A DNA stretch of 33,499 bases from a virus. Its lineage: Duplodnaviria > Caudoviricetes. Below, piece after piece: positions 5,001-30,289 of the stretch. The translations under genes and the position numbers were made by a program. Where the stretch lies: positions 1 to 33,499 of the IMG/VR virus record IMGVR_UViG_3300011334_000408, one strand, 5' to 3'. Positions within the stretch are counted from its first letter, which is position 1; each line of letters starts with the position of its first letter. The notes under the pieces are model-generated. The model ran no database searches. It saw nothing but the letters and a program-made list of their open reading frames with translations, and had not been told where the DNA came from.

Positions 5001-6829
5001 TGAGTAATATACAAAATTGGGATTTAATCCAAACAAATAAAGTATCAGGAACTGCAAAAATAAAATGTCCTATTTGCACAGATACACGCAGAAATAAACA
5101 AGATAAATCTTTAATGGTTTGGTTTAATAATGGAACTGCTAAATGTTTTAATGATGGTTGTAATGCTTTATTTTTTAGAGATAGTATACAAAAATCAATA
5201 GTAGAAAATAATTATACTTTACCACAACAAAATTGGAAAAACTACACAACTTTATCTGATAATTTAGTAAAGCATTGTGAAAACGAAAGGCTAATAAATC
5301 AATTTACTTTAAAACATTTTGAAGTATCAGAAGAAAAATATTATCAACCATCATTAAATAAAGAAGTTAATAATATTGTATTTAATTATTTTGAAGGGGA
5401 TATATTAGTTAATAAAAAATATCGTTCAGGTAATAAAAAATTTACTCAATCTAAAAATGGAAAGCCTATTTTTTATAACATTAATTCAATTATTGGAGAA
5501 GATGAAGTTTACATAGTTGAGGGTGAATTTGATGTTATGGCACTTTATGAAATAGGTATAAAAAACGCAATATCTATCCCAAATGGAGCAAACGACAATG
5601 ATAATTATTGGATTAATTCCGAAAAATATATAAAAGACGTTAAAAAGTTTTTAATTGCTACTGATAATGATAGTAGTGGAAATAATGTAGCTGAAAAAAT
5701 CGCACAACGTTTAGGGCGTTATAGATGTGAAAGGATTTTATTTGATGGTAAAGACGCAAACGATGACTTAAAAAGTGGTAAATTAAAAGAAACTATTTAT
5801 AATAGAAAAAAATATCCAGTTTCAGGAACTTTTACTACTGAAGATTTAATTGATAAAATGATGAGTTTATACAATGATGGTTTACCTAATTGTATTGAAA
5901 TAAAAAATACCGCTTTATCAAGTTTAAATAATATTTTTAAATTAATGTTTGGTCATTTATGTATTGGTACTGGTATACCATCACATGGAAAGTCAAATTT
6001 TACTGAATGGTTAGTTTTAAATTATCTTTTAGAAAATGATTTAAAAGCAAGTTTTTTTAGTCCTGAACATCAACCAATGGAATTACATATGTCAACTTTT
6101 GTACAAAAAGCAATAGGTAAGAATTATTTTTTTGATATAGATGGAGTTGAAAAATGTACAAAATTAGATATAATGGAATTTCATAATTGGGCAAATCAAA
6201 AATTATATTTAACAAGTCCTGAAAATGGAGAGTTTGCTAATTGGGATTGGATTTTTGAAAAGTTTAGAGAGCAAATTTATTCATTTGGAATTAATATCTT
6301 TGTAGTTGATGCTTGGAATAAAGTTGAATATACTGGAAATAAAACAGAAAGAGAAAATATAGCTTTAGTTTTATCAAGATTAACACAATTTGCTCAACAA
6401 AATAATGTATTAATTATAGTAATTGCTCACCCTACTAAAATGAAAAAAGAAGCTGGAATTTATGAAAGTCCTACTTTATATGATGTTTCAGGTAGTGCTG
6501 ATTTTAGAAACCAAACTCACGATGGATTTTGTATTTACAGATTTTTTGGAGATGAGTCTTATACCCAATTTATTAATTTAAAATCAAAATATAGTTTTCA
6601 AGGAGAAATAGGTGGTAAAATGGAATTTGATTATCATAAGCCATCAGGTCGTTATTATGAACGTGGAACCGAACCACAATTAGAAAGTTTAATAAAAGCA
6701 AATCAACAAAGAAAAGAGCCAAAAGAATTAATAGAAGAAATTGCACCTTTTCCATTAATTAAAATTGAAGAAATAAAAGGAGTTTTTGATGATATGCCAT
6801 ATGATGAAAATTTAGAAGTACCTTTTTAA
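5000..6829 (+). CDS. primase-helicase (T7 gp4/Twinkle-like)
   Basis: Zn finger CPIC...C...C; TOPRIM EGEFD and DND; Walker A GIPSHGKS; SF4 AHP and SGSADF motifs; acidic PF tail. Confidence 0.9.
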   Translation: MSNIQNWDLIQTNKVSGTAKIKCPICTDTRRNKQDKSLMVWFNNGTAKCFNDGCNALFFRDSIQKSIVENNYTLPQQNWKNYTTLSDNLVKHCENERLINQFTLKHFEVSEEKYYQPSLNKEVNNIVFNYFEGDILVNKKYRSGNKKFTQSKNGKPIFYNINSIIGEDEVYIVEGEFDVMALYEIGIKNAISIPNGANDNDNYWINSEKYIKDVKKFLIATDNDSSGNNVAEKIAQRLGRYRCERILFDGKDANDDLKSGKLKETIYNRKKYPVSGTFTTEDLIDKMMSLYNDGLPNCIEIKNTALSSLNNIFKLMFGHLCIGTGIPSHGKSNFTEWLVLNYLLENDLKASFFSPEHQPMELHMSTFVQKAIGKNYFFDIDGVEKCTKLDIMEFHNWANQKLYLTSPENGEFANWDWIFEKFREQIYSFGINIFVVDAWNKVEYTGNKTERENIALVLSRLTQFAQQNNVLIIVIAHPTKMKKEAGIYESPTLYDVSGSADFRNQTHDGFCIYRFFGDESYTQFINLKSKYSFQGEIGGKMEFDYHKPSGRYYERGTEPQLESLIKANQQRKEPKELIEEIAPFPLIKIEEIKGVFDDMPYDENLEVPF

Positions 6830-26656: not shown

Positions 26657-26687
26657 CGCCACCTCATAATCTCAGTATTATGAACCT

Positions 26688-26709
26688 GCTCCTTATGGGA
26701 GCTTTTTTT
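26688..26709 (+). terminator. intrinsic terminator after endolysin
   Basis: GCTCC-TTATG-GGAGC followed by T7. Confidence 0.75.
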
Positions 26710-26727
26710 ATTTATAATCATTATAAA
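26708..26727. promoter_or_regulatory. palindromic operator-like site, copy 1
   Basis: TTATTTATAATCATTATAAA; 19/20 identical to the copy at 31541-31560. Confidence 0.45.
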
Positions 26728-26736
26728 CTACACTAT

Positions 26737-26770
26737 TTTGTTATTAATATCAAAATAAATATTATATTTG
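26737..26770 (+). promoter_or_regulatory. promoter reading into the cassette array (Pc-like)
   Basis: TATATTTG at 26763-26770 and TTTG at 26737-26740; ends 9 nt before the first TAAC. Confidence 0.65.
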
Positions 26771-26779
26771 TAAAAGAAT

Positions 26780-26908
26780 TAACGTTCCCGTGCTTGGCGA
26801 GGTTCAAGGAAAGTAAATCCAGATGCTTTGAGTCAAGACTGAAATTAACAAACACAAACAGAATTTTAAATTAATAACTAAACCTTGAATCTTGCCAAAC
26901 ACGTGTTA
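26780..26908 (+). repeat. attC-like hairpin E1 (129 bp)
   Basis: TAAC-gttcc-CGTGCTTGGCGAGGTTCAAGG...CCTTGAATCTTGCCAAACACG-t-GTTA. Confidence 0.85.
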
Positions 26909-26980
26909 TAAGTAGTTGCGGTTAATTAGTAGGATTTTAAATTGAAACAATAAACAAAAAATAATTAAAACAAAAAAGCG

Positions 26981-27370
26981 ATGGATATTAAAGAATTTAC
27001 ATTTACTGGCTTCATAAAAATTGATTGGAGCGAAGATTTTAAAACTATCAAACTTATTGATGACAAAAAATCAATTGACCTTGTAAAAAAGTTTAGGGCA
27101 ATTTTTGATTTGTTTGAAAGCGAAGTTTCTGTTTCGTATTTCATTTCAAACGATAAAAAGACAGAAGTAGAAATACAAGAAGGCTGGTTAAAACAAATGT
27201 TTGGCGGAATAACTGCTGAATACGAAACAAGTAGCTACAACTACTCATCTTATACTTATGGTACAGATTATGACACTTATTTAAAAATTGGCGGACACGA
27301 TTTGTTTGACGAGTTTTCAGAACTAAACGATAAATGGTGTGTACTTAAAGTAAATGTAAAATGTGCGTAG
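26981..27370 (+). CDS. cassette 1 cargo, hypothetical protein
   Basis: 129-aa ORF within the inverted repeat at 26905-26919/27425-27439. Confidence 0.75.
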   Translation: MDIKEFTFTGFIKIDWSEDFKTIKLIDDKKSIDLVKKFRAIFDLFESEVSVSYFISNDKKTEVEIQEGWLKQMFGGITAEYETSSYNYSSYTYGTDYDTYLKIGGHDLFDEFSELNDKWCVLKVNVKCA

Positions 27371-27435
27371 GCTTTTGTTTTAATTATTTTTTGAAACGAA
27401 ATGTCAATTTGAAAACGGATGGGAGCAATTACTTA

Positions 27436-27506
27436 TAACGTTTTGGTGCTTGACGATGTGGCGGTCTGGAAATAGTACGTTCCGCCATATTGCCAAACAC
27501 TTGTTA
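27436..27506 (+). repeat. attC-like hairpin E2 (71 bp)
   Basis: TAAC-gttttg-GTGCTTGACGATGTGGCGG...CCGCCATATTGCCAAACAC-tt-GTTA. Confidence 0.85.
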
Positions 27507-27542
27507 TAAGCCGTTTATTTTATAAACTTTAAAATTATAATT

Positions 27543-27719
27543 ATGAAATATATATCATTTATTTTAATAACATTATGGGCTCTTTGGATGCTTGGAACAA
27601 ATGGAAATTTAAAACCTTCCGACAATTATTTTTTATGGATTTTAGGTGTTTTATCCATAATGTATTCGGTCATTAACTTGATTATCTTTTATGTAGATAT
27701 TCGTAAAAATGGCTTATAA
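27543..27719 (+). CDS. cassette 2 cargo, 58-aa two-TM membrane protein (not in ORF track)
   Basis: MKYISFILITLWALWMLG...FLWILGVLSIMYSVINLIIFY...; its stop is the TAA of the TAAC core. Confidence 0.7.
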   Translation: MKYISFILITLWALWMLGTNGNLKPSDNYFLWILGVLSIMYSVINLIIFYVDIRKNGL

Positions 27720-27843
27720 CGTTTTGTGGCTTTGCGTTCGTTGGGGATTTCCAGCACTAAAGCCGATTGATAGTACAAATTTTAAATATAGCACAAATGA
27801 TTATAGATAGCACTAAAGCCCCAATGACGCAAAACCACTGTTA
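27717..27843 (+). repeat. attC-like hairpin E3 (127 bp)
   Basis: TAAC-gtttt-GTGGCTTTGCGTTCGTTGGGG...CCCCAATGACGCAAAACCAC-t-GTTA. Confidence 0.85.
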
Positions 27844-28480
27844 TACGCAGCCCTTTTCAGAAGTTTTCAATGATGATTGTATTACGGTTATGAAGAGTTA
27901 TCCTGACAAATTCTTTGACCTTGCAGTAGTTGACCCACCTTATGGGATTGGAGCAAACAAAATGCAACTTGGCAATGGTAAAAGAAAGATTTACAGAGGC
28001 AAAAATGATTGGGATAACTCAATCCCTACTGCTGATTATTGGCAGGAACTTTTCAGAGTATCTAAAAACCAAATTGTGTGGGGTGGCAATTATATGACAG
28101 AACACCTGAAGCCAACTTCATCTTGGTTATTTTGGGATAAGGGAACTGGAGATAATGATTTTGCAGATGGGGAATTGGCTTGGACTTCATTTGGTGGAGC
28201 ATTGCGAAAAATAACCAAGAGTTGGGTTGGTGCAAATGCTAAAGATGGACTTGAACGAATACATCCAACGCAGAAACCCATTTATTTATATGATTGGATT
28301 TTTGACCGATATTGCAAAGAAGGAGATTTGGTTTTAGATACTCATTTGGGGAGTGCCAGCAGTAGGATTTCAGCAGATAAAGCCAAGTTGCGTTTTGTTG
28401 GTTGTGAAATAGATACTAAATATTTTAATGATGGAGAAGCAAGGTTCAAAGATTTTGTTTCACAGATGCGGCTCTTTTAG
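27797..28480 (+). CDS. cassette 3 cargo, N6-adenine/N4-cytosine DNA methyltransferase (beta class)
   Basis: DPPY precedes HPTQKP and motif I LDTHLGSASS; start ATG at 27797 or 27824 lies inside E3. Confidence 0.9.
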   Translation: MIIDSTKAPMTQNHCYTQPFSEVFNDDCITVMKSYPDKFFDLAVVDPPYGIGANKMQLGNGKRKIYRGKNDWDNSIPTADYWQELFRVSKNQIVWGGNYMTEHLKPTSSWLFWDKGTGDNDFADGELAWTSFGGALRKITKSWVGANAKDGLERIHPTQKPIYLYDWIFDRYCKEGDLVLDTHLGSASSRISADKAKLRFVGCEIDTKYFNDGEARFKDFVSQMRLF

Positions 28481-28489
28481 GGTTGCGTA

Positions 28490-28547
28490 TAACGGTTGCG
28501 GGTATGGGCTGGCGGCTTTTTCTGCCGCTTGCTTATACCCGATGTTA
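28490..28547 (+). repeat. attC-like hairpin E4 (58 bp)
   Basis: TAAC-ggttg-CGGGTATGGGCTGGCGGC-tttttct-GCCGCTTGCTTATACCCG-at-GTTA. Confidence 0.85.
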
Positions 28548-28585
28548 CCAGCTGGCACGGATTATTAACAACAAAAGCTAATTAG

Positions 28586-29548
28586 ATGAATGAAACAGTT
28601 TTAAATAATTTTTTGAGGGATGGCAAAAACGGCTTGCCCGAAGAATTTAACGTACTATCATTGTTTGATGGGATGAGTTGCGGGCAAATTGCACTTAATA
28701 ACATTGGATTGAAACCTACAAAGTATTTTGCGGCCGAGATTAAAAAACACGCTATACAATGCACTTTAGATAATTTTCCTGATACAATACAGATTGGAGA
28801 TGTAACGAAAGTAAAAGGCCAAGATTTGCCAAAAATACATTTATTGATAGGTGGAAGCCCTTGTCAAGATTTTAGTAGGGCAAATAGTGTAAGAGATGGT
28901 TTAAAAGGAATGAAATCAATGTTATTTTATGAATACATAAGATTACTTGAGGAAACGAAACCTGATTACTATTTACTTGAAAATGTTATAATGGATGATT
29001 TAGGTTACAATACAATAACCGAATTATTAGGAACAGAACCAGTAAGATTGTGCGGTTCAAAAGTAAGCGGAGCTTTAAGAGATAGATTATTTTGGACTAA
29101 TATCGGGCCTGAAAGTTTTGATTTATTTGGTAATCGTAAAAGTGCAATACCACAACCGAGAGATAAAAAAATAATGTTGAATGATGTTTTAGAATACGGA
29201 TATTCAGATAAGAAAAAACACACTTGCTTAAATACAAGTTGTGGCCGAGATGCAAACCAAAGATATATGCTGCATAGATACGCTACTACTGGAATGACTA
29301 CCATTATTTACACAGATGAAACAATGGATGAAAGCAAGGGTGTAAGGTATTGCACACAAACTGAATTGGAGAAATTGCACAATATACCATTAGGATATAC
29401 GAAAAACTTAAACAAGGCACAAGCTGGCAATTTGATTGGAGATGGTTGGAGTGTTGGAATAGTTGAACATATCTTTTCTTTTTTAAAAGGGGAGGAAAAA
29501 AAATTATTTAAAACTGAACCGAAATGCTTAATCGAAGAACGTCCGTAG
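28586..29548 (+). CDS. cassette 4 cargo, C5-cytosine DNA methyltransferase
   Basis: Motif I LSLFDGMSCG, IV GGSPCQ, VI ENV, VIII RDRLFW, X GDGW. Confidence 0.92.
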   Translation: MNETVLNNFLRDGKNGLPEEFNVLSLFDGMSCGQIALNNIGLKPTKYFAAEIKKHAIQCTLDNFPDTIQIGDVTKVKGQDLPKIHLLIGGSPCQDFSRANSVRDGLKGMKSMLFYEYIRLLEETKPDYYLLENVIMDDLGYNTITELLGTEPVRLCGSKVSGALRDRLFWTNIGPESFDLFGNRKSAIPQPRDKKIMLNDVLEYGYSDKKKHTCLNTSCGRDANQRYMLHRYATTGMTTIIYTDETMDESKGVRYCTQTELEKLHNIPLGYTKNLNKAQAGNLIGDGWSVGIVEHIFSFLKGEEKKLFKTEPKCLIEERP

Positions 29549-29558
29549 TGCTTGCTGG

Positions 29559-29687
29559 TAACATTCCCGTGCTTGGCGAGGTTCAAGGAAAGTAAATCCC
29601 GATGCTTCGAGTCAAGACCAAAATTAACAAATACAAACAGATTTTTAAATTAATAACTAAACCTTGAATCTTGCCAAACACGTGTTA
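29559..29687 (+). repeat. attC-like hairpin E5 (129 bp), near copy of E1
   Basis: Seven substitutions relative to E1 by hand alignment, none in the paired stem. Confidence 0.9.
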
Positions 29688-29719
29688 TAGCTTGTGGCGG
29701 ATTTTTAAAAACGAAAATT

Positions 29720-29941
29720 ATGTCAATAGAAAAAATGGAAATGTTTACAGTTATATGCGATAACTGCAAAACAAGTGCGGATGAAGATACTGATTATTCT
29801 TGTTGGAATGATGAAAGTGCCGCTAAAGATGTTGCAATGGAAGCCGATTACATTTATGAAGACGACAAGCATTATTGTCCTAAATGTTACAGATATAATG
29901 ATGAAGATGAATTGATAATTAACACAGAAAGAACAAAATGA
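29720..29941 (+). CDS. cassette 5 cargo A, acidic Zn-ribbon protein
   Basis: CDNC...HYCPKC. Confidence 0.7.
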   Translation: MSIEKMEMFTVICDNCKTSADEDTDYSCWNDESAAKDVAMEADYIYEDDKHYCPKCYRYNDEDELIINTERTK

Positions 29942-30219
29942 AAACTCTTAAAAAAGTAGAAATAGAACCCGTTTTTGTGGAGTTTGTTCCCGATGTTTTA
30001 GAAGAAAACAAAATCTATATTTCAGAAGAATATAAATGTGCTATTCATAATTGTTTGTGCGGTTGTGGAGAAAAAACAGTAATGCCTTTATATGGCAATG
30101 GATGGAATTTGATTAAAGAAAATAACGATAAAGTTTCATTTACTCCGAGTGTAGGAAACTATAATTTTCCTTGCAAATCACATTACATAATTACGAACAA
30201 TGTTGCAAATTTCGTTTAG
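29938..30219 (+). CDS. cassette 5 cargo B, DUF6527-like Cys/His protein
   Basis: CLCGCG...W...TPSVGN...CKSHY pattern; ATGA-coupled to cargo A. Confidence 0.6.
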   Translation: MKTLKKVEIEPVFVEFVPDVLEENKIYISEEYKCAIHNCLCGCGEKTVMPLYGNGWNLIKENNDKVSFTPSVGNYNFPCKSHYIITNNVANFV

Positions 30220-30289
30220 AACCGAAATCGTAGCCATAAGCTATAACTCCTTTATACTCGTAACTAACCTATTTAAACCTTTATAAACA

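Follow-up and report, generated by a model that had tools for sequence, protein, structure and literature searches.

Inner repeats of phage gene cassettes as parts of a stereotyped, reused chassis

At 26780-30247 of the window analyzed here, an entire virus record of 33,499 bases with terminase, primase-helicase and endolysin genes, lies an array of five cassettes (GTTA...TAAC) interleaved with five hairpin sites (TAAC...GTTA; sites A to E). Every cassette (5/5) bears a 14-bp outer repeat of its own, and because site E has relatives in Flavobacterium psychrophilum phages, the host is probably a member of the Bacteroidota. The question raised by this locus is why some cassettes hold a second, inner pair of inverted repeats close around the gene. 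A first-pass annotation had described such pairs in cassettes 1, 4 and 5, and had taken them for footprints of gene capture or for pairing that unites the cassette ends. We find that the inner repeats of cassettes 1 and 4 belong to a stereotyped, reused chassis, a widespread and, in the literature, apparently undescribed casing of an integron-like system.

Inner repeats and the chassis around the cargo

All strings and coordinates quoted for the inner repeats are present in the sequence. The cassette 1 pair is real, although the 24/22-nt version originally given contains a 2-nt bulge and the perfect core is the 21-nt pair listed in Table 1; the cassette 4 pair is perfect over 19 nt, as described. 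Neither length was reached in 1,000 dinucleotide shuffles of the 80-nt cassette ends (0/1000; null mean 7.3-7.9, maximum 13), and 39 native phage genes gave at most 9. The pair assigned to cassette 5 is a coincidence, with a longest perfect end-to-end match of 9 (p = 0.105). Its right arm is the final codons of a DUF6527 gene (ANFV-stop), which are also conserved in homologs that lack cassette ends, such as L378-L384, and its left arm is a stock linker piece, to which 10 of 288 cassette clusters have a 10/11 match in their first 60 nt. On these three grounds cassette 5 is excluded as an armed cassette. Alignments with its free homologs end at query 535-538 of 564, where its stop codon lies (536), and pass unchanged through the right arm, although homology had been expected to end at the inner repeat. 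A 5′ and a 3′ linker part (13.3 and 12.2 bits) flank its two genes, and the cassette reads as a single linker interrupted by those genes.

The motif GAA(A/C)CGAAAT occurs exactly three times in the 33.5-kb genome and not on the minus strand. All three copies lie where they had been reported, after the right arms, but the copy in cassette 5 is at the distal end of the linker and not next to an arm; the motif is part of the linker. CGG(A/T)T does directly follow all three left outer arms on the 3′ side. A hammerhead or group II intron reading of CGAAAT, by comparison with the motifs of those elements, was rejected, the flanking core being absent by eye and Rfam giving no match. On the inner side of both arms stands a G-rich word, which the first-pass annotation had passed over.

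From viral contigs, four pattern scans recovered 337 unique cassettes that form 288 clusters at 146 loci, the large scans with full flanks for the first 80 loci of each. Where an inner pair is present, alignment gives this order: outer arm, linker of ~36 nt, AT-rich arm, G-rich word, cargo, G-rich word, arm, linker of ~32 nt, outer arm. Inner pairs score at least 14 in 42/288 clusters versus 0/1500 mismatched cross pairs, and 54 of 62 stand in register, with the left arm ~50 nt and the right arm ~46 nt from the respective cassette end. The G-rich word, written as G[CG]GN1-2GG, is found inside the arm, counted per side, in 29/32 curated clusters versus 11/1168 interior windows, and never on the reverse strand (0/32); curation by eye had removed 5 of 37 in-register clusters. 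Without curation, and for loci found via site patterns only, both sides carry the word in 23 of the 61 clusters that have an inner pair (inverted-repeat score at least 12) and in 3 of the 202 that have none. A profile built from right linkers picks up left linkers (18/32) and site loops (38/227) as well, and rarely matches armless ends (2 and 7 of 211). Pairing between the two linkers as a conserved helix was not supported (−5.75 within versus −5.42 kcal/mol across cassettes, p = 0.064).

Two further features recur at the chassis ends. The mini-hairpin CGGTTTT-GAA-AAAACCG appears just inside the right G-word of different cargos (L144, L194, L264, L376), and at the left ends of L127, L133, L166 and L265 a G-word pair forms a one-sided bulge between outer and inner arm.

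Reuse of arms around different cargo

A context-free scan returned 73 distinct arm-word-cargo-word-arm units, 44 in called cassettes, 3 in site loops and 26 others; by eye, 17 of the 26 have an arm continuous with the outer arm, 8 have damaged outer arms and 1 has lost its left casing. Arm sequences vary, have no fixed core and are A-rich on the left in 39/73 units. Of the pairs of units with similar arms, 55 enclose unrelated cargo, 38 enclose protein-level homologs and 14 one and the same gene. A single frame surrounds five unrelated genes (L128, L132, L142, L191, L196), the arm of cassette 4 recurs, identical, around an unrelated 475-nt cargo in L187, and L154 and L328 hold one gene, 89% identical from G-word to G-word, between arms of opposite polarity. 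In contigs of runs X3 and X15 the ends of cassette 1, and likewise those of cassette 4, flank other DNA, joins that rest on 85% likeness with the intervening letters not known. Among the contig joints listed for X1 and X2, apparently one data set and made of contigs rather than reads, there is no excised circle or empty junction; runs with a small share are uninformative on habitat.

The borders follow the reading frame. Of 64 distinct cargos, 21 have their start at +5 relative to the left G-word, 7 at −2 and 2 at −5. Their stop falls within −6 to +12 of the right G-word in 24, and 11 cargos end 2 nt before the word; the frame reads through in 24 and stops further upstream in 16. Arms in both polarities might suggest invertase sites that flip the cargo, which we regard as most improbable: in 71/73 units the G-word strand carries the longest open frame, so that cargo is not found in both orientations, reverse-strand G-words are absent from the curated set, and the arms share no fixed core.

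The cassette 4 methylase bears on whether each capture creates its own arms. It is free in L401, L409 and L416-L419 and lies in armless cassettes in L402-L408 and L410-L415; these homologs start MNVL and end shortly after HIF, and no arm-like flank was found at any free or armless copy. Residues ~21-301 of the cassette 4 protein align with the free homologs, and the ~20 residues at each terminus are read-through of chassis DNA. On the right, homology ends a few bases before the G-word. The arms mark the border of chassis and cargo, but homology ends at or inside the G-rich word rather than at the arm itself. Many of the methylase cassettes have variant cores (GTTG...CAAC; L402, L403, L405-L408, L410-L415).

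Cassette 1 has no match among GenBank phages. Its gene was found mostly in armless cassettes. L440 holds it in the same chassis with one uncompensated change. In L450 a relative of 61% identity sits inside a site loop, enclosed by a 23-nt arm that shares its inner part with the window and differs complementarily in its outer part; such mirrored changes in both arms also distinguish L133 from L280. In L377 the left inner arm of cassette 1 lies directly on ordinary intergenic DNA. At L377:1380-1500, and on the minus strand in the final 110 nt of L376, a left inner arm, G-word and gene start are joined to unrelated DNA, linker and outer arm are missing, and the break falls at the outer edge of the inner arm. 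L448 carries a free homolog between ~50-nt direct repeats (~280-330 and ~725-780), a different mobility signature.

If capture copied one flank of a gene to its other end, arms would be cassette-specific and near perfect, as they are, and the L377 join could be taken for such a flank. L377 keeps the whole right chassis end, though, and is therefore more plausibly the remnant of a cassette that has decayed. That the same arms surround unrelated genes, that one gene occurs between different arms, and that free methylase homologs have no arm-like flank largely refute this per-gene footprint, to which we give very little credence.

Predicted folding of the coding strand and a proposed acceptor

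Mismatches in the outer arms comprise 352 G:T, 7 A:C and 136 of other kinds, and each site bears 3-4 additional bases on its 5′ arm (offset +3/+4 in 374/405 site calls); the coding strand is thus taken as the folding strand. Predicted folding is stronger on that strand (−96.6 versus −82.4 kcal/mol). Related cassettes keep the upstream site alone in 20/40 pairs and the downstream site alone in none (by cluster, 8 versus 0 of 13), a geometry as in integrons but with the genes inverted. The site stem shares the outer-arm profile, including a G (91-93%) opposite T (98-99%); in 191/248 sites the profile matches best at 6 or 8 nt from GTTA. Site stem and outer arm may therefore be two equivalent recombinase arms, each running into a loop.

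The loops of sites and cassettes have contents in common: linker, G-words, short open reading frames and armed genes. Loops of linker alone occur in 80-nt sites and in a 67-bp gene-less cassette (L132:5867-5933) made of outer arms and one linker. G-words are present in 11/31 sites of 48-74 nt, two of them in 6, versus 0/236 other sites, and gene-less loops with a G-word pair have a 3-4-nt spacer between the words. Armed genes lie inside site loops in L450, L178 and L303. In a long-site scan of 25 rows, some of them chance or doubled sites and judged by eye, loops up to 378 nt are unarmed and the genuine long ones (823 and 1274 nt, plus L450) are armed.

A PF00589 search found no tyrosine recombinase in the window genome. 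In 5 of 145 related loci one of 267-294 aa begins 40-52 nt after the last TAAC; that of L004 scores 142 bits with TIGR02249, under the cut-off of 265, lacks the IntI insertion (19 residues where VchIntIA has 62) and has the XerA structures 5HXY and 4A8E as closest sequence relatives.

We propose, at about even confidence, that the chassis is a reusable acceptor for genes, which would enter it or be swapped when the coding strand is in its folded state. The proposal builds on the observed architecture and its reuse, the homology switch at or near the G-words, the occurrence in attC-like loops and the bias towards long cargo; we infer its steps. The coding strand would fold into nested stems, and outer arm and site stem would act as equivalent binding arms of a Xer-like recombinase, so that the cassette body would formally be a hairpin loop like that of the site, both loops drawing on the same linker and G-word pair. 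A gene would enter at the G-word pair capping the AT-rich stem, by some end-joining or template-switch reaction, and replace the 3-4-nt spacer or an older gene. Selection would retain junctions with open frames, often using the ATG of the G-word, and the recombinase, in trans for the window phage, would then mobilize the whole cassette. More tentatively, Bacteroidota phages may make new cassettes by dropping genes into an already existing hairpin vector whose cloning site is the AT-rich stem capped by two G-words.

Several points weigh against this acceptor model. No enzyme, intermediate or reaction was seen. None of the 73 units is an empty AT-rich armed unit, the smallest cargo being 314 nt, and for that reason the G-word-pair loops could be deletion products and not acceptors. 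Starts lie at G-words in only 30/64 cargos and stops in 24/64, many junctions being off the word; the left homology junction of cassette 4 misses the G-word, falling ~33 nt inward of the left arm; and AAAAGCA already precedes the ATG in armless relatives of cassette 1, so its left word may partly derive from the gene leader. The G-word pattern was written only after data inspection. Left and right linkers are no more similar within than between cassettes (p = 0.17), and the same holds for G-words (p = 0.91); there is hence no duplication signature, and a fresh target-site duplication at the cassettes is excluded. With 240 of 263 clusters unarmed, most cassettes need another route.

Arms go almost exclusively with longer cargo, being present in 0/109 clusters below 300 nt, 2/35 at 300-400 nt and 21/119 above; for non-methylase cargo the counts are 2/144 below 400 nt and 7/70 above. 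This strong bias, the arming of long site loops, the tolerance of either arm polarity and the mirrored arm changes would also suit a selected clamp that zips the ends of long cassettes and site loops and so brings recombination sites together in single-stranded DNA. Gene replacement would then be illegitimate recombination trimmed by selection and the G-word a protein-binding cap. We consider the clamp somewhat unlikely as the explanation, though compatible with the acceptor model. Length is confounded with methylases (14/49 armed), a point against both readings, and 98/119 long cargos have no arms. Scrambling the right arm lowers predicted outer-arm pairing in only 3/10 cassettes, which also tells against both, and unarmed cassettes of 550-900 nt pair about equally (mean 0.67, n = 8, versus 0.82). 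The fixed ATG and stop positions are left unexplained by a clamp, and in classical integrons, according to passages of PMC5371416, excision drops consistently only at 1,500 bp or more. The same passages suggest that short cassettes reflect limits at genesis, which would fit the arms as a route for long genes. Of the original claims, those of ends brought together and of a relation to capture thus survive in part, because the arms stand at the border between chassis and cargo and, by prediction, pair on the coding strand; in the folding model the outer ends depend on the arms to stay together in only three cassettes of ten.

It is also conceivable, but improbable, that the frame acts in RNA, through retron-like pairing by which a host reverse transcriptase would copy the gene, or as arm and G-word control of termination or translation. 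The G·T bias suits RNA as well as DNA, the borders follow start and stop codons, and an RNA-library contig of X15 has cassette-1 ends, which is not proof of transcription. In retrons a sequence-variable terminal repeat (a1/a2) closes the payload and a conserved G stands beside the stem; here too a variable closing repeat has a G next to it. The G-word may also resemble ops and Chi words. Unlike a retron, the chassis has a protein-gene payload and its motif on both sides, and no reverse transcriptase was found in the window genome, nor did a crude motif scan of 145 loci show one next to the arrays. At gathering score Rfam gave no family except tRNAs, and hence no msr/msd match. Free arm polarity is incompatible with a terminator U-tract or A-rich leader, and the same parts occur in the loops of DNA recombination sites.

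The array and its relation to known systems

Measured against classical integrons, the sites form hairpins with a conserved core, extrahelical bases and strand bias, their cores being TAAC/GTTA and not strictly GTTRRRY, the attC core consensus. They differ in that the site is upstream of its gene, not downstream and co-moving, i.e. the genes are inverted relative to classical cassettes, and in their 14-bp cassette-specific outer arms. No IntI with the insertion was found in the window, and the linked L004 enzyme lacks it. A nested linker/arm/G-word chassis is a further difference, of which no description was found in the literature searched, subscription papers lying outside the search. Five attC-type sites, five cassettes and no PF00589 match in the genome agree with a cluster of attC sites lacking integron-integrases (CALIN). 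A cassette array between strand-biased hairpins, TAAC/GTTA cores, extra bases on one arm, a site that travels with one cassette, and short accessory genes with many methylases are likenesses to integrons and phage CALINs as described in parts of PMC5371416 and PMC9892861; in the part of the phage CALIN paper covered, no Flavobacter or Bacteroid term occurs (PMC9892861). The DUF1874 motif, found in consecutive intergenic regions without an integrase, may, it has been proposed, be attC-like single-stranded DNA of greater complexity than a hairpin, but the sites here have no Rfam match to it and no nested gene-holding stem is described in the passages concerned (PMC5737381). Conserved terminal repeats with a target-site duplication, as in insertion sequences and miniature inverted-repeat elements, are not what we see: arms vary and linkers are not duplicates. 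A Xer site has two similar binding arms around a spacer, as do the sites here, and XerA is the closest relative of the array-linked recombinase; the substrate, by contrast, is apparently a folded single strand with interchangeable loop contents.

In chromosomes, the linker pattern matched only 2 small contigs among 185,579 genomes, and a G-word-plus-AT pattern 15/401 genomes against 6 in the control; in none of the 15 did the 3-kb locus hold an upstream partner arm, and absence of armed chromosomal frames is not proven by either search. Chromosomal modules in which stems and AT tracts enclose 5-8 G-rich words were noted in L483, L484, L485, L487, L494 and L495 (~1250-1750); those of L485 and L487 continue into a cassette end and an attC-like site, the neighbouring gene apparently facing the opposite way.

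The features of the array are collected in Table 1. Sites A and E (26780-26928, 29559-29707) form a 149-nt direct repeat of 91% identity, by which homologous recombination could delete cassettes 1-4. Directly 5′ of the array, at 26680-26772, a terminator-like hairpin with a T-run precedes TTTG...TATATTTG (22-nt spacing), which we take to resemble a Bacteroidota promoter. The cassette 3 protein ends SQMRLF (28460-28480), and QxxLF-like C-termini, presumably akin to a sliding-clamp binding motif, are seen in many cargo proteins; in armed cassettes L133, L280 and L302 PQTLF is encoded by the right linker itself.

Table 1. Positions of array features in the window
Feature	Position	Strand	Remarks
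attC-like site A	26784..26904	+	hairpin between TAAC and GTTA; ~120-nt class; 91% identity to site E
Cassette 1 left outer arm	26905..26918	+	complementary partner 27426-27439
Cassette 1 left linker	26919..26954	+	starts CGGTT; family common with right linker
Cassette 1 left inner arm	26955..26975	+	21 nt, A-rich
Cassette 1 left G-rich word AAGCGATGG	26976..26984	+	source of ATG at 26981
Cassette 1 cargo	26981..27370	+	129-aa protein, function unknown; weak phrog_20281 match; 88 homologs
Cassette 1 right G-rich word GTGCGTAGG	27363..27371	+	stop codon inside word
Cassette 1 right inner arm	27373..27393	+	
Cassette 1 right linker	27394..27425	+	GAA(A/C)CGAAAT motif at start; linker profile 16.4 bits
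Cassette 1 right outer arm	27426..27439	+	TAAC at end
attC-like site B	27440..27502	+	
Cassette 2	27503..27720	+	armless; 58-aa open reading frame
attC-like site C	27721..27839	+	repeated A-rich loop
Cassette 3	27840..28493	+	armless; N6/N4 DNA methyltransferase
attC-like site D	28494..28543	+	accompanies cassette 4 in L001, L002, L012
Cassette 4 left outer arm and linker	28544..28595	+	in-frame ATG (28586) comes from linker
Cassette 4 left inner arm	28596..28614	+	19 nt, T-rich; polarity opposite to cassette 1
Cassette 4 left G-rich word GAGGGATGG	28615..28623	+	
Cassette 4 C5 DNA methyltransferase	28586..29548	+	320 aa
Cassette 4 right G-rich word GGGGAGG	29489..29495	+	
Cassette 4 right inner arm	29498..29516	+	
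Cassette 4 right linker and outer arm	29517..29562	+	linker 23.3 bits; member of profile training set
attC-like site E	29563..29683	+	
Cassette 5	29684..30247	+	linker 5′ part 29698-29719, two genes, linker 3′ part 30220-30233, outer arm; without true inner arm

Beyond this one array, the formation of integron cassettes is described as largely unknown in parts of PMC5371416, and the acceptor model, if true, would give a visible, sequence-defined route of cassette genesis. Site stems and cassette arms would be equivalent, so that a gene caught in either loop would become a mobile cassette. The short junction word, the empty and filled forms and the reused casings are concrete substrates for mutation and assay, and the cultured Flavobacterium phage 6H, which has at least two armless cassettes of this family (L497:4097-4493 and 5453-5669), not annotated as such, offers a host system. 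Chassis DNA accounts for odd protein termini such as those of cassette 4, and the chassis also for how phages stock anti-restriction methylases.

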